Source of the DNA: a virus | Lineage: Duplodnaviria; Heunggongvirae; Uroviricota; Caudoviricetes | DNA length: 23,450 nucleotides | Direction: 5' to 3' (one strand) | IMG/VR virus record: IMGVR_UViG_2541047903_000002 | Notes under the pieces: generated by a model | Databases searched by the model: none | What the model saw: only the letters and a program-made list of their open reading frames with translations | Told to the model about the DNA's origin: nothing | Made by a program: the position numbers and the translations under genes | In this document: piece by piece, positions 6,463 to 23,450 of the stretch | How the letters are laid out: every line of letters begins with the position of its first letter | Position numbering within the stretch: position 1 is the stretch's first letter

Positions 6463-6735
6463 TCATCTCGCCGTCAGTTGTTTTGATTTCCGGTAGCCTG
6501 CCGCGTAAAGAGCTACGTTCGGAAGACAAGTTGAACCTTCATATTTTCTGGTCAACGTTGTCAGAGTTATCACTTCTGCTCTCATTGCTGGTTTGAGCTT
6601 GCATTGCAAGACCACTCGTGAAGGGGTTGGCCTGTGTAGCTTGTCGGAGCTGATCGCCTCCTGACTTTGCAGATTTGCGCGACGAGCTCTACGGCGAGAA
6701 GCTGCGGTGCCTTTAAATTCTGTTTTTCTGGACAT
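6463..6735 (-). CDS. N: N-type transcription antiterminator
   Basis: Arginine-rich motif GTAASRRRARRANLQ near the N-terminus; C-terminus VALYAAGYRKSKQLTAR resembles P22 gp24; GGGAGG Shine-Dalgarno before the ATG at 6735. Confidence 0.8.
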   Translation of the reverse strand: MSRKTEFKGTAASRRRARRANLQSQEAISSDKLHRPTPSRVVLQCKLKPAMRAEVITLTTLTRKYEGSTCLPNVALYAAGYRKSKQLTAR

Positions 6736-6834
6736 GGATTCCTCCCGAATAAACTTTGGCGATGCAATCTCGAAGCTCCTCCTGAGACGGTTGCTTCGGC
6801 ATTGCATCCCACAGCTTATGTGGTTGGGTGATCT

Positions 6835-6878
6835 GGCTTTTCAGCCACGTAGTCGAGAGTCGACGTTGTTTAAAGAGC
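6835..6878 (-). promoter_or_regulatory. nutL: boxA-like GCTCTTTAA plus boxB hairpin GGCUGAAAAGCC
   Basis: Read on the minus strand between pL and N; same boxA - about 23 nt - boxB layout as the site after cro. Confidence 0.6.
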
Positions 6879-6924
6879 CTGCCAGTCTGTTCCATTTGGC
6901 TTCCAGCGTCCTGCTGACGGTTAA

Positions 6925-6953
6925 ATAGTACGATATGTACTTTACAAGATCAA
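6925..6953 (-). promoter_or_regulatory. Candidate pL (-35 TTGATC, 17-bp spacer, -10 TACTAT) with an overlapping palindromic operator AGTACGATATGTACT
   Basis: Hexamers and palindrome read directly on the minus strand upstream of nutL. Confidence 0.5.
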
Positions 6954-7140
6954 TACAATTTGTTGTAAGTTGGCGTGGTTTTTTATAACGCTTTGTATTT
7001 AATAGTGTTGTTTTTTAGCGTGGATGTATTGCCTCGGCGATGTAAGGAGAGATCAGAATTGCGTGGTTTAGTGGGTTGCATCTATTTATTTTTCAATAAA
7101 TATAATTGGTTATGTGTTTTTAGGTGGGCGAACGTGAGGC

Positions 7141-7166
7141 AAAGAAAACCCGGCGCTGAGGCCGGG
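7141..7166 (-). terminator. Intrinsic terminator ending the cI-linked operon
   Basis: Minus-strand hairpin CCCGGC-CTCAGC-GCCGGG followed by TTTTCTTT, directly after the 250-aa gene. Confidence 0.6.
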
Positions 7167-7171
7167 TTGTA

Positions 7172-7924
7172 TTATGCTGCAAGTCTCTTAACCCAAGTCT
7201 CTCTTTTGGAGAATGGTAGAACTTGGCTTGATTCATGGAAGAGTAAGGAGAGTTGTTGCATTTGATCACCAATTGCTTCGCTGTCTATAACAACAAATCT
7301 GTTGTTATACTCCTCACTTGAAGCTTTAAGATCAATTAGTTTCCCAAGCAATGAGTAAGCACTATTCCAGCTTCCTCCGTGTTTCACGCTTGATGTAAAA
7401 ACGTATTTAGGTATGTCGGTTTTTATTGTTACAGGGACGGTAATTTGATGTCCACTCAAGCCATATACGTTTTCACGAAGAGAAAGTGCGTCTCTAAGCT
7501 CTGTGTGATATAGATAATCAATAACCATACTTTCAAACTTTTCAGCTTGAACTGGCTGATACCAGTCTAACGACAAAGTTGATGCGAGTATACCAGCTCT
7601 AATTATGTTCGATGTAATCGCACCGACATCCTTTTCTGTTGCCCAAGCAATGATTTCTCCTCGAGCATTGAGTTCTGCGCCTTCTTTAAGCAGTAATTGT
7701 CGTATCTCATCAAGTCGTTTTTTGGTAAGCGAGATCCCTCTTGCCTCCATATTCATTAAGGCATCGCATCTGTCACTAACTAAATACCTACCATTGACTT
7801 CACGGATAAAGGCACCGACATGCTCTCCATCATCACAGTAAGTGAATGGACTGATAATTCTCAAGGTCTTGCCTATTGGATGGCATTCGAAACCTAGTTG
7901 TGAGATCACTGTTGAGCACATCAT
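7172..7924 (-). CDS. Hypothetical protein, second gene of the cI-linked cassette
   Basis: 250-aa ORF; start ATG overlaps the stop of the upstream gene (ATGA); AT-rich; no family recognised. Confidence 0.7.
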   Translation of the reverse strand: MMCSTVISQLGFECHPIGKTLRIISPFTYCDDGEHVGAFIREVNGRYLVSDRCDALMNMEARGISLTKKRLDEIRQLLLKEGAELNARGEIIAWATEKDVGAITSNIIRAGILASTLSLDWYQPVQAEKFESMVIDYLYHTELRDALSLRENVYGLSGHQITVPVTIKTDIPKYVFTSSVKHGGSWNSAYSLLGKLIDLKASSEEYNNRFVVIDSEAIGDQMQQLSLLFHESSQVLPFSKRETWVKRLAA

Positions 7925-8478
7925 ATTCCAAACCCCATTTGCCCCGACTCATCTTCAAGCGGTAAAGGTATTCTCCCAGAGTAAGTTATGTTCAGATGTT
8001 TACAGAAGTAATTCCAATACCCTACCAGGTCATCTGGGTTTATGTCATCTTCGATTGGAAACGCTATTCTATCACTATAGTATCCAGCTTCTTCATAGTA
8101 TACATGGTAGTGAGCACCGTAAATGATATCTTGGTACTTCGGATGATCGACCTTGTAACTATTCGTGTGTTTGTCAAAGTGATAGGTATCTACCGCGAAA
8201 ACCCTCTTGTTATGATAGAAAGCAATAATATTTATTTTAGGGTAAGAAATCGGGTCATCAGGTTCTGAATCCTGATCTGGTTTCCATTTCAGTTCAAACT
8301 TTAGCCCTTGTATAGGTATACAATCCTCATCCAAGGGGATGATATGGGCTTGTAGCCACATATCAGAGCGACTTGGTTTCTGTTTCCATTTAACGCCAGA
8401 AAAGTTAACTATTTTTTTACAATAAAGTACTTTATCAACTTCTACTTGGCTTGGCTGATAATCATCTATTTTTGCCAA
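7921..8478 (-). CDS. Hypothetical protein, first gene of the cI-linked cassette
   Basis: 185-aa ORF starting 39 nt after the cI stop (track start is TTG; true start uncertain); acidic, Tyr/His-rich C-terminal half; AT-rich. Confidence 0.65.
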   Translation of the reverse strand: MAKIDDYQPSQVEVDKVLYCKKIVNFSGVKWKQKPSRSDMWLQAHIIPLDEDCIPIQGLKFELKWKPDQDSEPDDPISYPKINIIAFYHNKRVFAVDTYHFDKHTNSYKVDHPKYQDIIYGAHYHVYYEEAGYYSDRIAFPIEDDINPDDLVGYWNYFCKHLNITYSGRIPLPLEDESGQMGFGI

Positions 8479-8517
8479 TGTTTACCGCCCTGTAAATTGT
8501 AGATAAAAGTGGTTTCA

Positions 8518-9177
8518 TCACCCAAACGTCTCTTCAGGCCATTGGCTGGCGATAACTTTCCCCACAACGGAACAACTCTCATTGCATGGGATCATTGGGT
8601 ATTGTGGGTTTAGTGGCTGTAGAAACACCTGACCGCTATCCCTGATCAGTTTCTTGAAGGTAAATTCATCACCACCAAGTCTGGCTATGCAGAAATCGCC
8701 GGGCTCAACAGCTTGCTCAGGGTCAACCAGAATTAACATCCCGTCAGGAAAGCTGGGTTTGGAACCTGTTGGTGCGGTCATTGAGTTACCTTCAACCTCA
8801 AGCCAGAATGCAGAGTCACTGGCTTTTTTGGTTGTGCTTACCAATCTCTCCGCATCGCCTTTGGTAAAGGTTCTGAGTTCTGGAGAGAACATCCCAGCCT
8901 GAACATGAGAAAAAACAGGGTACTCATATTGTTTTTTAACTGGGGCCGATGAGTATTCGCCAACAGGTGAAAATGTCCCGTCGTGGTTGAATGATATGTT
9001 ATCAATACCAAGGTATTTAAACACCACACCAATATCACTAAGAGATGGATGACGAGATCCGCGCAACCAGTGTCCAATCCCACCCTGCGTCATACCTAGC
9101 TCTTCGGCTAACTTCTCTTGAGTTATGCCGAGCTCTTTCATTCTGGATCTAGCCAGTTCATACCATTTCATTTTCAT
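8518..9177 (-). CDS. cI: CI-type prophage repressor with a lambda-type C-terminal domain
   Basis: C-terminal about 135 aa ([21 protein letters not shown]...QWPEETFG) match lambda CI; N-terminal HTH domain is different. Start at M-K-M-K-W-Y (9177 or 9171). Confidence 0.85.
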
Positions 9178-9288
9178 GTCCTTATTATTACGCTCTGTAC
9201 TGGAACCATCCATGCACAATGTGTATTTTTACTTGTATTCGCAAAGTACATATTGTATTTTTTTATTCGTGTTTACTATGGAGGGCAT
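9178..9288. promoter_or_regulatory. Right operator/promoter region between cI and cro (pRM/pR), with imperfect palindromes
   Basis: AAGTACATATTGTAT resembles the palindrome at pL; CACAATGTG and a GGAGGG Shine-Dalgarno before cro also present. Confidence 0.55.
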
Positions 9289-9504
9289 ATGAGCAACCTA
9301 CGAAAATATCGAGAGTCACTGAATATCTCTCAAACAACACTTGCTAAGGCAGTTGGATGCACACAGGGAGCTATCGGACATTGGGAATCTGGTCGTCGCT
9401 TCCCAGACCTTAAAACATGCCGTGCTCTTGTTGCGTGCCTAAACAAGTTAGGCGCAAAAGTCAGTCTTGATGACGTGTTCCCGCCGGAACACAAAGCCGC
9501 TTAA
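9289..9504 (+). CDS. cro: Cro-type HTH repressor
   Basis: 71 aa MSNLRKYRESLNISQTTLAKAVGCTQGAIGHWESG...; the HTH (TQGAIGHW) is close to that of the adjacent repressor (TQGGIGHW). Confidence 0.8.
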   Translation: MSNLRKYRESLNISQTTLAKAVGCTQGAIGHWESGRRFPDLKTCRALVACLNKLGAKVSLDDVFPPEHKAA

Positions 9505-9514
9505 TAAGCGGATC

Positions 9515-9560
9515 CGCTCTTTGTAACAACGGACATTCGTCCTACGTCGCTGAAAAGCGA
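9515..9560 (+). promoter_or_regulatory. nutR: boxA CGCTCTTTG plus boxB hairpin TCGCUGAAAAGCGA
   Basis: Read directly; spacer between boxA and boxB is nearly identical to that of nutL. Confidence 0.6.
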
Positions 9561-9645
9561 GTTCCAAGATATCTGACCAACTAAGGCCATATGCGTTTCC
9601 ACGCATACCTTTCAACTAACTATTCACTATTGGAAATCTTAAGAA

Positions 9646-9942
9646 ATGGAAAGAACAAGTTACAGCAAACTATCACAGCGTGACGTTGATCGCGCAGAAA
9701 CAGATTTACTTATCAATCTGTCAGCTATTACCCAGCGCGGTCTGGCAAAGATGATTGGCTGTCATGAATCGAAGATAAGCAGAACGGACTGGAGATTTAT
9801 TGCTTCGGTCTTGTGTGCTTTCGGAATGGCATCAGACATCAGTCCGATTAGCAGGGCTTTTAAGTATGCGCTTGATGGACTCACCAATAAAAAACGCCCG
9901 GCGGCAACCGAGCGTTCTGAACAAATCCAGATGGAATTCTGA
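9646..9942 (+). CDS. cII: CII transcriptional activator
   Basis: C-terminus TNKKRPAATERSEQIQMEF matches lambda CII. Confidence 0.9.
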   Translation: MERTSYSKLSQRDVDRAETDLLINLSAITQRGLAKMIGCHESKISRTDWRFIASVLCAFGMASDISPISRAFKYALDGLTNKKRPAATERSEQIQMEF

Positions 9943-9974: not shown

Positions 9975-10874
9975 ATGACAAATACAGCAAAAATACTCAA
10001 CTTCTGCAGAGGTAACTTTGCCAAACAGGAGCGTAATGTGGCAGATCTCGATGATGGTTACGCCAGACTATCAAATATGCTGCTTGAGGCTTATTCAGGC
10101 GCAGATCTGACCAAGCGACAGTTTAAAGTGCTGCTTGCCATTCTGCGTAAAACCTATGGATGGAATAAACCAATGGACAGAATCACCGATTCTCAACTTA
10201 GCGAGATTACAAAGTTACCCGTCAAACGGTGCAATGAAGCCAAGTTAGAACTCGTCAGAATGAATATTATCAAGCAGCAAGGCGGCATGTTTGGACCAAA
10301 TAAAAACATCTCAGAATGGTGTATCCCTCAAAACGAGGGAAAATCCCCTAAAACGAGGGATAAAACATCCCTCAAATTGGGGGATTGCTATCCCTCAAAA
10401 CAGGGGGACACAAAAGACACTATTACAAAAGAAAAAAGAAAAGATTATTCGTCAGAGAATTCTGGCGAATCCTCTGACCAGCCAGAAAACGACCTTTCTG
10501 TGGTGAAACCGGATGCTGCAATTCAGAGCGGCAGCAAGTGGGGGACAGCAGAAGACCTGACCGCCGCAGAATGGATGTTTGACATGGTGAAGACCATCGC
10601 GCCATCAGCCAGAAAACCGAATTTTGCAGGGTGGGCTAACGATATCCGCCTGATGCGTGAACGTGACGGACGTAACCATCGCGACATGTGTGTACTGTTC
10701 CGCTGGGCATGCCAGGACAACTTCTGGTCCGGTAACGTGCTGAGCCCGGCCAAACTCCGCGACAAGTGGACCCAGCTCGAAATCAACCGTAACAAGCAAC
10801 AGGCAGGTGTGACAGCCTGCAAACCAAAACTCGACCTGACAAACACTGACTGGATTTACGGGGTGGATTTATGA
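9975..10874 (+). CDS. O: Replication initiator O
   Basis: 299 aa, near-identical to lambda O from memory (MTNTAKILNF...). Confidence 0.95.
   Translation: MTNTAKILNFCRGNFAKQERNVADLDDGYARLSNMLLEAYSGADLTKRQFKVLLAILRKTYGWNKPMDRITDSQLSEITKLPVKRCNEAKLELVRMNIIKQQGGMFGPNKNISEWCIPQNEGKSPKTRDKTSLKLGDCYPSKQGDTKDTITKEKRKDYSSENSGESSDQPENDLSVVKPDAAIQSGSKWGTAEDLTAAEWMFDMVKTIAPSARKPNFAGWANDIRLMRERDGRNHRDMCVLFRWACQDNFWSGNVLSPAKLRDKWTQLEINRNKQQAGVTACKPKLDLTNTDWIYGVDL
10323..10455. repeat. ori-lambda: four iterons plus AT-rich region inside O
   Basis: Four tandem TCCCTCAAAACGAGGGA-like repeats followed by ACAAAAGAAAAAAGAAAAG. Confidence 0.85.
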
Positions 10875-11572
10875 AAAACATCGCCGCACAGATGGTTAAT
10901 TTTGACCGTGAGCAGATGCGTCGGATCGCCAACAACATGCCGGAACAGTACGACGAAAAGCCGCAGGTACAGCAGGTAGCGCAGATCATCAACGGTGTGT
11001 TCAGCCAGTTACTGGCAACTTTCCCGGCGAGTCTGGCTAACCGTGACCAGAACGAACTGAACGAAATCCGCCGCCAGTGGGTTCTGGCTTTCCGGGAAAA
11101 CGGGATCACCACAATGGAACAGGTTAACGCAGGAATGCGCGTAGCCCGTCGGCAGAATCGACCATTTCTGCCATCACCCGGGCAGTTTGTTGCATGGTGC
11201 CGGGAAGAAGCATCCGTTATCGCCGGACTGCCAAACGTCAGCGAGCTGGTTGATATGGTTTACGAGTATTGCCGGAAGCGAGGCCTGTATCCGGATGCAG
11301 AGTCTTATCCGTGGAAATCGAACGCGCACTACTGGCTGGTTACCAACCTGTACCAGAACATGCGGGCCAATGCGCTGACTGACGCGGAATTACGACGCAA
11401 GGCTGCCGATGAACTGACCTGTATGACAGCGCGAATTAACCGTGGTGAGACGATACCTGAACCAGTAAAACAACTTCCTGTCATGGGCGGCAGACCTCTA
11501 AATCGTGTTCAGGCGCTGGCGAAGATCGCAGAAATTAAAGCTAAGTTAGGACTGAAAGGAGCAAGTGTATGA
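10871..11572 (+). CDS. P: Replication protein P (DnaB helicase loader)
   Basis: 233 aa, near-identical to lambda P from memory; ATGA overlap with O. Confidence 0.95.
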   Translation: MKNIAAQMVNFDREQMRRIANNMPEQYDEKPQVQQVAQIINGVFSQLLATFPASLANRDQNELNEIRRQWVLAFRENGITTMEQVNAGMRVARRQNRPFLPSPGQFVAWCREEASVIAGLPNVSELVDMVYEYCRKRGLYPDAESYPWKSNAHYWLVTNLYQNMRANALTDAELRRKAADELTCMTARINRGETIPEPVKQLPVMGGRPLNRVQALAKIAEIKAKLGLKGASV

Positions 11573-14777: not shown

Positions 14778-15860
14778 TTAGAACTGATAAACCAGACCTA
14801 CAGCGACGATGTCGTCGGTATCAATACCAGCTGTTTTGGTAAACTTACTATCGTCAATTAAGTTGATTTTGTAATCAACAAAAGTGGACATGTTTTTATT
14901 AAAGTAGTAAGTAGCACCGACATCGACATACTTGACTAAGTCTCGGTCACCATGAACACCAAGGTCTTTACCTTTTGACTGAAGGTAAGCAACAGATGGA
15001 CGCAGACCGAAGTCAAACTGATATTGTGCTACTGCTTCAAAGTTTTGTGCTTTGTTTGCAATATGGTTATTACCAAAAACGGTCATATTCTGAGTTTCAG
15101 AATATGTGGTAGCCAGATAGATATTGTTCGCATCATATTTCAGGCCTGCAGCCCATACTTCCGCATTTTTGCCGGAGGCATTGAATTTGCTCTTACCATA
15201 GGCGACCTGACCGTCAGTGCGATCTGATTTAGCATAGGTTGCACCCACGCCGAATCCTTCATACTCATAAGTAGTGGAGAAACCGAAACCATCACCATTG
15301 GCTTCAGTTACGTCAGTGCGGTCATTTTTACCCTGATACTGAGCAGCAAAGTTCAGGCCATCGACCAGACCAAAGAAGTCGTTGTTACGATAAGTTGCAA
15401 CACCAGTAGTGCGACCAGTCATGAACACATCTGTTTGGGTCCAGGTATCACCACCGAATTCTGGCAGAACGTCAGTCCACGCACCGATGTCGTATGCTAC
15501 ACCGTAGTTACGGCCGTAATCGATTGAGCCGTAATCACCAAATTTCAGGCCTGCAAATGCAAGACGGGTTTTGTCTTTGGAAGAACCTTGAGATTCAGCA
15601 CGGTTGCCTTTGAATTCATATTCCCACTGACCGAAACCAGTCAGTTGATCGTTGATTTGGGTTTCACCTTTGAAGCCAAGACGGGCATAAGTAGTATCAC
15701 CATCATCTGCATCATTAGAGGAGAAGTAGTGCTTGGCATTAACTTTCCCGTATAGATCCAGCTTGTTACTGTCTTTATTATAAATTTCAGCTGCCTGAGC
15801 AGACATCGCCATCAGTACTGATGCAGCTACAGCAGAAATTGCCACTGTTAATTTTTTCAT
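14778..15860 (-). CDS. nmpC: Outer-membrane porin of the OmpC/OmpF/NmpC family, apparently intact
   Basis: Signal peptide [23 protein letters not shown], porin-like beta-barrel sequence, C-terminal ...VGLVYQF. Confidence 0.9.
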
Positions 15861-16287
15861 TGTACGCCCTTTTTTTGAACTTTTATTAAAAAATGATGTC
15901 ACTGCGCGATAAATATTCATCTAATCAATGTGATTATTTCAAGATGTAAGTTTTAGTTTCTCATTTAATTTGTGAAGTAGATCTCTATTTTTATCTGAAC
16001 CTTTTCTATCTAATCCTATTCATGGCTCTTGTCTGAACAAAAATAAATCTATTAGCTAATTTATATTAATGGCACTTATTTATAAGTGCTCTATAATTCT
16101 TTAGCTTAATTTAAACAAACTAAAAATAACATCGGAAATTATTAACTGGTTATTTGTTGAAGTTTTCTTATGCATTTGTGGTGGTGTTTTGAACACTCGG
16201 TGGCATTCTCACAAATATCATTTAGTAGTTTACGTACGTAAAAAATTGGTTATGCTGTTAAGAGTGGTTACTTCGTCACACAGCTTA

Positions 16288-19514: not shown

Positions 19515-19526
19515 GGGCGGCGACCT
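19515..19526. other. cosN cohesive-end site, lambda type
   Basis: CAACAGGTTACG followed by GGGCGGCGACCT and CGCGG(T)TTTTC(A)CTATTTATGAAAATTTT matches the lambda genome ends from memory; Nu1 begins about 175 nt downstream. Confidence 0.8.
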
Positions 19527-19702
19527 CGCGGTTTTTCACTATTTATGAAAATTTTTCAGGGAAAATCGTGTCGGTACTTCTCGAATATAACTTTTTGTTT
19601 TTTTTAATATTGCATCCGTAAAGGTCCGACATGAAAGTGTCCGAAAATGCCTTTTTCTGGCGTTTTCATGTCGGGCCTTGTATTTGATAATGGGTTGTTT
19701 TC

Positions 19703-20251
19703 ATGAAGGTTAATAAAAAGAGGCTTGCCGAAATTTTCAACGTGGACCCGCGGACGATTGAACGCTGGCAGTCTCAGGGACTCCCTTGCGCCTCCAAAGG
19801 TAGTAAGGGCATTGAATCTGTATTTGATACTGCCATGGCAATTCAGTGGTATGCGCAGAGGGAAACTGATATCGAAAACGAAAAGCTCCGCAAAGAACTG
19901 GACGATTTGCGTGCGGCAGCGGAGTCAGATTTACAACCCGGCACCATTGACTATGAACGCTACCGGCTCACAAAAGCGCAGGCAGATGCGCAGGAACTGA
20001 AAAATGCCCGTGAAGACGGAGTAGTGCTGGAAACTGAACTGTTTACCTTCATTCTGCAACGTGTGGCACAGGAGATTTCGGGGATACTTGTGCGTGTGCC
20101 GTTGACATTACAGCGTAAATATCCGGACATTTCACCATCACACCTTGATGTGGTGAAAACTGAAATCGCGAAAGCCTCCAATGTTGCAGCTAAGGCCGGT
20201 GAAAACGTGGGCGGGTGGATCGATGATTTCAGACGCGCAGAAGGCAGCTAA
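19703..20251 (+). CDS. nu1: Terminase small subunit Nu1
   Basis: [28 protein letters not shown]... Nu1-like winged-helix N-terminus. Confidence 0.9.
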
Positions 20252-22151
20252 TGCAGCCGGTGCGATAGCTACAGGGCTTTTATCTCTCATTATTCCTGTT
20301 CCACTGACGACAGTTCAGTGGGCCAATAAACATTATTACCTTCCTAAAGAGTCGTCTTATACCCCGGGGCGATGGGAAACACTGCCGTTTCAGGTTGGCA
20401 TCATGAACTGTATGGGCAACGATCTGATTCGCACGGTTAACCTGATTAAATCTGCCCGTGTTGGTTATACAAAGATGTTGCTGGGAGTGGAGGCTTATTT
20501 TATTGAGCATAAATCACGCAACAGCCTTCTTTTTCAGCCCACGGACTCAGCTGCTGAAGATTTTATGAAATCTCATGTTGAGCCAACGATAAGGGATGTT
20601 CCTGCATTGCTGGAGCTGGCTCCATGGTTCGGAAGAAAACACCGCGATAATACGCTCACCCTGAAGCGTTTTTCCTCCGGTGTGGGGTTCTGGTGTCTGG
20701 GTGGTGCGGCAGCAAAAAACTACCGTGAAAAATCCGTGGATGTGGTCTGTTATGACGAGCTTTCCTCGTTCGAACCGGATGTTGAAAAAGAGGGTTCGCC
20801 AACCCTGCTGGGGGATAAACGTATTGAGGGCTCTGTATGGCCAAAATCCATTCGCGGCTCGACGCCTAAAATCAAAGGCTCCTGCCAGATCGAAAAAGCC
20901 GCTAACGAGTCGGCACACTTCATGCGTTTTTATGTGCCCTGTCCGCACTGTGGGGAGGAGCAGTATCTGAAATTTGGCGATGATGCCTCGCCTTTCGGTC
21001 TTAAGTGGGAGAAGAATAAGCCAGAAAGTGTTTTCTACCTTTGTGAGCATCATGGCTGTGTGATCCATCAGTCTGAGCTTGACCAGAGTAACGGGCGGTG
21101 GATCTGTGAAAACACGGGCATGTGGACCCGTGACGGCCTGATGTTTTTCAGCGCCCGGGGTGATGAAATTCCGCCGCCGCGCTCCATCACTTTCCATATC
21201 TGGACGGCGTACAGTCCGTTCACCACCTGGGTACAGATTGTCTATGACTGGCTGGATGCACTGAAAGATCCCAACGGCCTGAAAACCTTTGTGAACACCA
21301 CGCTGGGCGAGACCTGGGAAGAGGCTGTGGGCGAAAAACTCGATCACCAGGTGCTGATGGATAAGGTTGTGCGTTACACGGCGGCGGTGCCTGCCCGGGT
21401 GGTTTATCTGACGGCGGGCATTGACTCGCAGCGAAACCGTTTTGAGATGTATGTCTGGGGATGGGCTCCGGGAGAGGAAGCCTTTCTGGTGGATAAAATC
21501 ATCATTATGGGGCGTCCCGATGAGGAAGAGACGCTGTTACGTGTGGATGCGGCGATCAACAAAAAATACCGCCATGCAGACGGAACCGAAATGACCATTT
21601 CCCGTGTCTGCTGGGACATCGGGGGGATCGATGGCGAAATCGTTTATCAGAGGTCAAAAAAACACGGTGTTTTCCGGGTGCTGCCGGTAAAAGGCGCGTC
21701 TGTCTATGGCAAGCCGGTGATCACCATGCCGAAAACCCGCAATCAGCGGGGCGTTTATCTGTGTGAAGTGGGGACGGACACCGCAAAAGAAATTCTCTAT
21801 GCCCGTATGAAAGCCGAGCCCACGCCTGCGGATGAAGCCACGTCGTATGCCATCCGTTTTCCTGATGATCCGGAGATTTTTTCGCAGACAGAGGCGCAGC
21901 AACTGGTCGCGGAAGAGCTTGTGGAGAAGTGGGAAAAAGGAAAGATGCGTCTGCTGTGGGATAACAAAAAGCGGCGTAACGAAGCGCTGGACTGCCTGGT
22001 GTATGCCTACGCGGCATTACGTGTGTCCGTGCAACGCTGGCAGCTTGATCTGGCTGTACTGGCAAAATCCCGGGAAGAAGAGACGACCCGGCCAACCCTT
22101 AAAGAACTGGCAGCGAAGCTGTCCGGAGGAGTGAATGGTTACAGTCGCTGA
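20223..22151 (+). CDS. A: Terminase large subunit A
   Basis: Lambda gpA-like throughout ([20 protein letters not shown]..., Walker-type ATPase region); start placed at an in-frame ATG near the Nu1 end. Confidence 0.9.
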
Positions 22152-22341
22152 ACTGCAGGCGCTGCGTCAGGCGCGCCTTGATTTATTAACCGGTAAACGG
22201 GTGGTGTCTGTCCAGAAAGATGGTCGCAGAATTGAATATACGGCGGCTTCTCTGGATGAGCTTAACCGGGCGATCAATGATGCGGAGTCGGTACTGGGGA
22301 CAACCCGGTGTCGCCGTCGTCCGCTGGGAGTGAGGTTATGA
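22135..22341 (+). CDS. W: Head-tail joining protein W
   Basis: 68 aa with TGKRVVSVQKDGRRIEYTAASL, lambda gpW-like. Confidence 0.85.
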   Translation: MVTVAELQALRQARLDLLTGKRVVSVQKDGRRIEYTAASLDELNRAINDAESVLGTTRCRRRPLGVRL

Positions 22342-23450
22342 AACGAACGCCTGTCCTGATTGATGTGAACGGCGTTCCGCTTCGTGAGAGTCTCAGCTAC
22401 AACGGGGGCGGTGCAGGATTTGGCGGGCAAATGGCTGAGTGGTTGCCACCGGCGCAGAGTGCCGATGCGGCCCTGCTGCCCGCGTTGCGTCTGGGGAATG
22501 CCCGGGCAGATGATCTGGTGCGCAATAACGGAATAGCGGCTAATGCGGTGGCCCTGCATAAGGATCACATTGTCGGGCATATGTTTCTGATCAGCTACCG
22601 TCCGAACTGGCGCTGGCTGGGGATGCGGGAGACCGCAGCAAAAAGCTTTGTCGATGAGGTGGAGGCGGCCTGGTCGGAATACGCCGAAGGGATGTTTGGC
22701 GAGATCGACGTGGAAGGAAAACGCACGTTCACGGAATTTATCCGTGAAGGTGTGGGCGTTCATGCGTTTAACGGCGAAATCTTTGTGCAGCCGGTCTGGG
22801 ATACGGAAACCACGCAGTTATTCCGTACGCGTTTTAAAGCCGTGAGTCCGAAACGGGTGGACACGCCTGGACACGGTATGGGGAACCGTTTTCTGCGGGC
22901 CGGTGTGGAGGTCGATCGATATGGCCGTGCCGTCGCGTACCATATCTGTGAGGATGATTTTCCGTTCTCTGGTAGTGGACGATGGGAACGGATCCCGCGT
23001 GAACTTCCCACCGGGCGTCCGGCCATGCTGCATATTTTCGAGCCGGTGGAGGACGGGCAGACCCGTGGGGCTAATCAGTTTTACAGCGTCATGGAACGGC
23101 TGAAGATGCTCGATTCCCTGCAGGCAACACAGCTTCAGTCGGCCATAGTGAAGGCGATGTATGCAGCGACGATTGAAAGTGAACTTGATACCGAAAAGGC
23201 CTTTGAATATATCGCCGGCGCGCCACAGGAGCAGAAGGATAATCCGCTTATTAATATTCTGGAGAAGTTCTCCAGCTGGTATGACACGAATAACGTGACA
23301 CTGGGCGGTGTCAAAATTCCGCACCTTTTCCCTGGTGATGATCTGAAACTACAGACTGCGCAGGATTCAGACAATGGATTTTCTGCGCTTGAACAGGCGC
23401 TGCTGCGGTATATCGCCGCCGGTCTTGGCGTTTCCTACGAACAGTTGTCC
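22338..23450 (+). CDS. B: Portal protein B, 5' partial (runs past the window end)
   Basis: Hand translation from the ATG overlapping the W stop gives lambda gpB-like sequence (GNARADDLVRNNG, FEPVEDGQTRGANQFYSVME) with no stop up to 23450; missing from the track because it has no stop in the window. Confidence 0.85.
   Translation, partial: MKRTPVLIDVNGVPLRESLSYNGGGAGFGGQMAEWLPPAQSADAALLPALRLGNARADDLVRNNGIAANAVALHKDHIVGHMFLISYRPNWRWLGMRETAAKSFVDEVEAAWSEYAEGMFGEIDVEGKRTFTEFIREGVGVHAFNGEIFVQPVWDTETTQLFRTRFKAVSPKRVDTPGHGMGNRFLRAGVEVDRYGRAVAYHICEDDFPFSGSGRWERIPRELPTGRPAMLHIFEPVEDGQTRGANQFYSVMERLKMLDSLQATQLQSAIVKAMYAATIESELDTEKAFEYIAGAPQEQKDNPLINILEKFSSWYDTNNVTLGGVKIPHLFPGDDLKLQTAQDSDNGFSALEQALLRYIAAGLGVSYEQLS

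Follow-up and report, generated by a model that had tools for sequence, protein, structure and literature searches.

A probable VT2-Sakai-type lambdoid immunity module with a mosaic cI repressor gene

The cI–OR–cro region of the window (by which we mean the whole 23,450-nt stretch of viral DNA analyzed here) is, with a probability of roughly 0.93, a lambdoid immunity module of the VT2-Sakai (Sp5) type that is ordinary, widespread and already described. Its repressor/Cro switch is not new, having featured in publications and GenBank annotation from about 2000–2003 onward, and the immunity type was sequenced first in the Shiga-toxin phage VT2-Sakai (Sp5). The annotation of record AP005153 describes cI as 'similar to phage lambda CI' and marks a putative cro along with putative operators of 17 bp at OR and at OL. 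As relayed second-hand in PMC10742460, Fattah et al. 2000 found the homology between VT2-Sa CI and lambda CI to be high C-terminally and low N-terminally. In PMC8951638, the CI proteins of Eru2 and Eru3 (VT2-Sakai being Eru3) are placed in Clade I, closest to lambda CI, with an overall identity of 61%.

The layout of the region is that of a lambdoid immunity module: cI and cro diverge from a short intergenic control region, with cII lying downstream and N on the left. The repressor gene cI occupies 8518–9177 on the minus strand (219 aa from ATG 9177, with HTH_3 and Peptidase_S24 domains) and cro occupies 9289–9504 on the plus strand (71 aa). To the right lie cII (9646–9942, plus strand; Pfam Phage_CII, 7e-34), O (9975–10874) and P (10871–11572). 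The gene for the N antiterminator (6463–6807, minus strand), which is non-lambda, belongs to the same immunity/early-left module and is HK97-N-like in the AP005153 annotation, sits in a segment (6463–7169) that shares 93% identity with the Stx1 phage and VT2-Sakai.

Positions 8400–9650 of the window are 100% identical in phages ev207, ev017, PhiR57_1 and PhiR63_2. The Stx1 and Stx2-II phages of this immunity type are those of strain Morioka V526. Rightward from the cI stop codon, the sequence is 98.5–98.8% identical in many Stx phages, among them the Stx1 converting phage (AP005153), the Stx2-II phage (AP005154), Nil2, 2851 and the Pennsylvania 'PA' Stx2a phages; for VT2-Sakai, identity over the cI–OR–cro segment is about 98.5%. 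At the protein level, the window and VT2-Sakai share 98.8% identity in the CI N-domain and 100% in both the CI C-domain and Cro; across VT2-Sakai, the Stx1 phage and Nil2, identities are 98.8–100% for the CI N-domain and 100% for the C-domain and for Cro. The DNA of N, OL, cI, OR, cro and cII is 93–97% identical between the window and the VT2-Sakai, Stx1, Stx2-II, Nil2 and 2851 phages. Between cI and OL, however, the window has a DUF1828/phrog_2017 gene pair whereas the Stx phages have orf22 and others, and the window phage carries lambda-type O, P and ren and, unlike the Stx phages, no stx genes within the window. Among 5,426 complete Escherichia coli genomes, the segment comprising the N-domain, OR and cro was present in 776 (~14%), with the type strain ATCC 11775 at 100%. 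H-19B, a phage with characterized operators, is without this immunity: with an E cutoff of 0.01, tblastn gave no match in it to either CI domain or Cro.

The repressor is a two-domain protein of the LexA/CI type, with an HTH plus peptidase S24 architecture. Counting residues from the Met at 9177, Pfam places HTH_3 at residues 11–58 (1.9e-10) and Peptidase_S24 (PF00717) at residues 87–209 (1.1e-28), the latter matched over its full length (1–116/116). In the PDB, the C-terminal part of CI (residues 84–219) matches lambda CI (3bdn, 2.6e-96; 8gmu, 3.2e-89), with entries for the lambda CI C-terminal domain at 1e-65 to 1e-96. Residues Ala94–Gly95, Ser132 and Lys175 align with lambda Ala111–Gly112, Ser149 and Lys192 and are invariant in a six-sequence alignment.

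Within cI there is a true recombinational mosaic joint. The lambda-type part of the gene (8518–8928, minus strand; residues 84–219) encodes the rest of the linker with the Ala94–Gly95 cleavage site, followed by the S24 catalytic/oligomerization domain with Ser132 and Lys175, while the non-lambda part (8929–9177, minus strand; residues 1–83) encodes the HTH domain, with recognition helix QGGIGHW, and the first part of the linker. The initial annotation, made from the sequence alone, had proposed that the last ~135 residues match lambda CI, and BLASTP of residues 84–219 against residues 102–237 of lambda CI (taken from NC_001416) bore this out, with 135 of 136 residues identical. The sole difference in the C-domain is Leu112 (TTG, window 8842–8844) versus lambda Trp129 (TGG). 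Leucine at this codon is common to the Stx-phage copies, whose C-domain is 100% identical to that of the window, and phage Dewey has Trp. At the DNA level, MAFFT alignment and blastn against the whole lambda genome agree that window 8517–8928 corresponds to lambda 37226–37637 at 93.4% identity, and by the same two methods nucleotide similarity to lambda was not detected in the cI segment 8929–9177. The left joint lies at the cI stop codon. The right joint, located within a few bases at 8928/8929 (codons 83/84), falls in the linker between the domains, with 10 codons separating it from the Ala94–Gly95 bond downstream, and this abrupt step in the DNA is where a recombination junction had been proposed, at the domain linker.

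The lambda-like backbone that had been suggested for the module is likewise present, and it is mosaic too. Lambda homology resumes at 9880 inside cII, which is the right-hand mosaic boundary, and runs to 12373, the stretch from the end of cII through O, P, ren and ninB being 97.3% identical to lambda. Among phages, the lambda-type C-domain is found on at least four N-domain types, namely those of lambda (99%), the VT2-Sakai type (98–100%), Lambdavirus PDP110P1 (87.5%) and Salmonella phage 118970_sal4 (79%). Conversely, a VT2-Sakai-type N-domain on a non-lambda C-domain, which would have pointed to the direction of the original exchange, did not turn up in 63 phage records and two divergent E. 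coli examples; in every record examined, the N-domain is joined to a lambda-type C-domain. The cI stop codon is also the exact point at which homology to the Stx phages with this immunity breaks off, which makes the end of cI a recurrent exchange point for the content of the rex position. The mosaic structure of cI, with joints at 8928/8929 and at the stop codon, therefore means that homologous recombination between lambdoid phages coupled the induction/oligomerization module of lambda to a different DNA-recognition module. As an instance of modular, domain-level mosaicism in lambdoid phages, the window cI is a textbook example with little value as a discovery.

A history without recombination, in which cI descended vertically, with rapid divergence of its N-domain under selection for another specificity and a C-domain kept constant, strikes us as extremely improbable. 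The window and lambda N-domains are distantly homologous, and purifying selection on the C-domain has been strong, as 26 of the 27 nucleotide differences in the lambda-type part of cI are synonymous and one is non-synonymous. Purifying selection at the protein level, however, cannot preserve synonymous sites, yet these are lightly diverged in the C-domain (6.6% of all bases), whereas the N-domain DNA has no detectable similarity and the change from one to the other is completed within a few bases. Because similarity is lost stepwise, synonymous sites included, simple differential divergence is ruled out. The second sharp joint at the cI stop codon, the occurrence of the lambda-type C-domain on at least two further N-domain types and the different position of the joint in the PDP110P1 repressor all argue for recombination as well. 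We find it hardly credible, too, that these genes are relics of a defective prophage with a non-working switch. Some E. coli genomes, that of strain MSB1_9I among them, do keep cI next to a replacement for cro, but the ORFs of the window are all intact, the records in which the segment is 100% identical (ev207, ev017, PhiR57_1 and PhiR63_2) are deposited as complete phages, and the rest of the window holds a complete set of early, replication, lysis and packaging genes.

On the DNA-recognition side, the N-domain of CI had been described as unrelated to that of lambda, which overstates the difference: it is divergent (29.8% identity over 47 aa by tblastn), but it belongs to the same HTH_3 family and is a distant relative. 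Its alignment to the N-terminal part of lambda CI is weak (~30% identity). The best match in the PDB is the 70-residue DBP48 (8tac); entries for the lambda repressor N-domain come next (1lli, 4.7e-4; 1lmb, 3.4e-3), and the 434 and P22 repressors rank behind the lambda entries (E 0.25–0.5). When the HTH motifs were compared by eye, 10 of 21 residues were identical between the window and lambda, including the equivalent of lambda Gln44, and the lambda specificity positions Ser45, Ala49 and Asn52 were Gly, His and Arg in the window CI. The nearest N-domains outside the immunity group are those of C2 from the P22-like Salmonella phage ST64T (55%) and of the 118970_sal4 repressor (52%). ST64T C2 is of a different immunity type and has a C-domain 46% identical to that of the window CI; 118970_sal4 is also of another immunity type, and its repressor likewise carries a lambda-type C-domain (79%).

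Cro is a protein of the all-helical HTH_3 type (Pfam HTH_3, 4.2e-12) and a paralogue of the CI N-domain. The two share 22 of 62 residues (E = 8e-11), a similarity that, given this E value, is well beyond chance. A close resemblance between the recognition helix of CI and that of Cro (GCTQGAIGHWESG) had been noted, and it was confirmed: both strings are present, with 9 of 13 residues identical. The exposed helix residues Q, G, H and W, which would be expected to face the DNA, are common to the two proteins, and helix position 3 is G in CI and A in Cro. Lambda Cro, whose fold differs from the all-helical HTH_3 Cro of the window, gave no BLASTP alignment to it at E ≤ 100. Outside the immunity group, the nearest Cro is that of ST64T (69%), and the ST64T C2 helix TQGAIGHW is the same as the helix of the window Cro. 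Phages 434 and P22 resemble the window in that Cro is a paralogue of the repressor N-domain and both proteins are all-helical HTH_3, while the sequence similarity of the solved 434 and P22 domains to the window CI N-domain and Cro is marginal (E 0.01–1).

Six related pseudo-palindromic sites of 17 bp, three at OR and three at OL, are predicted operators. On the plus strand at OR, these are OR3 (9186–9202, TATTACGCTCTGTACTG), OR2 (9212–9228, ATGCACAATGTGTATTT) and OR1 (9244–9260, AAGTACATATTGTATTT), each an exact match to the published predicted VT2-Sa site of the same name; OR3 is a putative operator in AP005153 as well, and OR1 has one mismatch to AGTACN5GTACT. On the plus strand at OL, predicted OL1 (6926–6942, TAGTACGATATGTACTT) matches VT2-Sa OL1 exactly and is a perfect AGTAC-N5-GTACT palindrome, while OL2 (6951–6967, CAATACAATTTGTTGTA) and OL3 (6984–7000, TATAACGCTTTGTATTT) are each one base off their VT2-Sa counterparts. 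The six predicted VT2-SA operators listed in the supplement of PMC10742460 are all found in the window at the expected places, four of them exact and two with one change, and VT2-Sakai-group phages show the same pattern (OR1–OR3 and OL1 as in the window, OL2 and OL3 one base different each).

The half-site consensus of the six sites is AARTACA, with A5 and C6 present in 12/12 half-sites, A2 in 11/12, and T4 and A7 in 9/12. Allowing ≤2 mismatches, AGTAC-N5-GTACT occurs 13 times in the window compared to 5.6 expected, a count reached in 0 of 100 shuffles; the sole copy free of mismatches is OL1, and of the three copies with one mismatch, two correspond to OR1 and OR3. A relaxed form of the palindrome, which catches five of the six sites, occurs 16 times compared to 6.7 expected (0 of 100 shuffles reached 16). 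The lambda-type operator TATCACCGNNNGTGATA, searched with ≤3 mismatches, had no match at OR or OL. The half-site in lambda operators is TATCACC, versus AARTACA in the window.

The maximal cI ORF (8518–9219, minus strand) is open up to TTG 9219, and the likely ATG starts are 9177 and 9171. ATG 9171 has a well-spaced AAGGA Shine–Dalgarno sequence 7 nt upstream, and the Nil2 record takes this ATG as the start (217 aa). In the AP005153 and PhiR57_1 records, cI starts at ATG 9213 (231 aa); this start, given in several GenBank records, is unlikely to be the true one because it lies inside OR2. For annotation, it is useful to have the likely true start flagged, as several database records begin the gene inside this operator.

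A simple scan for sigma-70 promoters picked up none of PR, PRM and PL at the thresholds used, and promoter positions were taken from a reading of the sequence and from analogy with lambda. On the minus strand, OR3 ends 8 bases before ATG 9177, a TAATAA hexamer lies at 9190–9185, and ATGGAT at 9213–9208, which would make a poor -35 element, overlaps OR2 by two bases. Relative to a cI start at ~9177, the centers of OR2 and OR3 are at about −43 and −17, compared to −42 and −19 in lambda. This geometry suggests a weak, CI-activated PRM that would give a leaderless or near-leaderless cI mRNA, as in lambda, and by the same comparison a leaderless message could begin at ATG 9177 itself.

The module would be expected to operate as a standard lambda-type bistable switch. 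Lambda has the same gene order and logic, with three operators each at OR and OL, and differs in its DNA-binding domain (~30% identical to that of the window) and in having rexAB, which are absent from the window. Through its N-domain, CI is predicted to bind the six 17-bp operators, three of them between cI and cro and three upstream of N; CI dimers at OR1 and OR2 and at OL1 and OL2 would shut PR and PL, and Cro, with the same recognition surface, would compete with CI at the OR sites. Because CI is essentially lambda CI from residue 84 onward, it has the cleavage site, the catalytic dyad and the dimer and tetramer interfaces of lambda, whose CI agrees with that of the window at 99% over the linker, cleavage site and C-terminal domain. 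Following DNA damage, RecA would probably stimulate self-cleavage of CI at Ala94–Gly95 by the Ser132/Lys175 dyad, given this 99% identity in the cleavage and catalytic region. CI may also bind cooperatively, as lambda CI does, but lambda-like pairwise cooperativity is an assumption here because the OR1–OR2 center spacing is 32 bp in the window versus 24 bp in lambda.

The module falls outside imm-lambda, as its N-domain, its operators at OR and OL and its Cro are all non-lambda. From these sequence features we infer an immunity specificity distinct from that of lambda; the recognition residues and the half-site both differ, lambda operators are lacking and Cro is of another fold class, all of which points in this direction. 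[quoted passage not shown] We consider such cross-immunity quite unlikely for the window phage. The HTH motifs of window CI and lambda do have 10 of 21 residues in common, lambda Gln44 among them, and the half-sites AARTACA and TATCACC share A2, A5 and C6, but the key lambda specificity positions are changed (Ser45 to Gly, Ala49 to His and Asn52 to Arg), operators of the lambda type are absent at OR and OL, and Cro belongs to another fold family than lambda Cro. The report itself is second-hand: in PMC10742460, Fattah et al. 2000 are said to have shown the cross-immunity and to have ascribed it to similar recognition helices. The same source gives electrophoretic mobility shift data in which lambda CI shifts VT2-SA operators at 3.7–6.4 µM. 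However, lambda CI acts on its own OR1 and OL1 at 0.2–0.35 µM, so that the VT2-SA affinities are 10–30 times weaker, and on unrelated Stx2-I sites at 3.7–7.7 µM, much as on the VT2-SA sites (PMC10742460). Because the affinity matches that for the Stx2-I sites, these values suggest that binding of lambda CI to VT2-SA sites is largely non-specific.

A different kind of interaction with lambda may be imagined, given that the linker and C-domain differ from those of lambda CI by one residue: mixed dimers or tetramers/octamers of window CI and lambda CI could for this reason form in cells lysogenic for both a lambda-immunity prophage and the window prophage, coupling the stability and induction of two prophages that would otherwise be heteroimmune. 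We put this forward tentatively, as a rather unlikely outcome. If true, mixed oligomers might explain the second-hand report of VT2-Sa/lambda cross-immunity, and repressor cross-talk could be common, with the module in ~14% of complete E. coli genomes and the C-domain on at least four N-domain types.

The immunity group of the window prophage is that of the Stx phages Sp5 and Sp15 of E. coli O157:H7 Sakai. Because the group is the same, homo-immunity with these toxin phages is predicted, and a commensal carrying the prophage should resist their lysogenization via repressor immunity.

Several other features were observed in and around the module. A two-gene cassette on the minus strand (7172–8478) lies exactly at the position of lambda rexA–rexB and encodes a 250-aa DUF1828 protein (phrog_1960) and a 185-aa protein (phrog_2017, with a weak DUF6978 match). 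It is flanked by two islands of lambda homology, one being the cI C-domain (8517–8928) and the other, downstream of the cI operon, a segment at 7047–7168 (minus strand) that corresponds to lambda 35708–35826, just past rexB, and contains a terminator-like hairpin (7147–7168). Both cassette proteins have weak matches to the PADLOC candidate defense system PDC-M24 (B, 4.7e-10; A, 4.8e-4), and the pair may be a superinfection-exclusion or defense system expressed with cI in the lysogen. The cassette was found in only seven phage records, and the Stx phages of the same immunity have another gene at this position.

In E. coli MSB1_9I (NZ_LR890508, locus L008, 2090–4213), a cI copy lies by torI/dsdC, with 96% identity in the N-domain and 98% in the C-domain and a 1,353-nt ORF in place of cro; the locus looks like what is left of a prophage that has retained its repressor. 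At the right-hand end of the window, the packaging and head genes Nu1, A, W and B (19515–23450) show 65–69% DNA identity to lambda, versus 97% for O–P–ren–ninB. Between Q and the lysis genes, the window carries a 380-aa porin gene (14778–15920, minus strand), OmpD-, NmpC- or OmpC-like in the matching phages, which is a moron of the lysogenic-conversion type.
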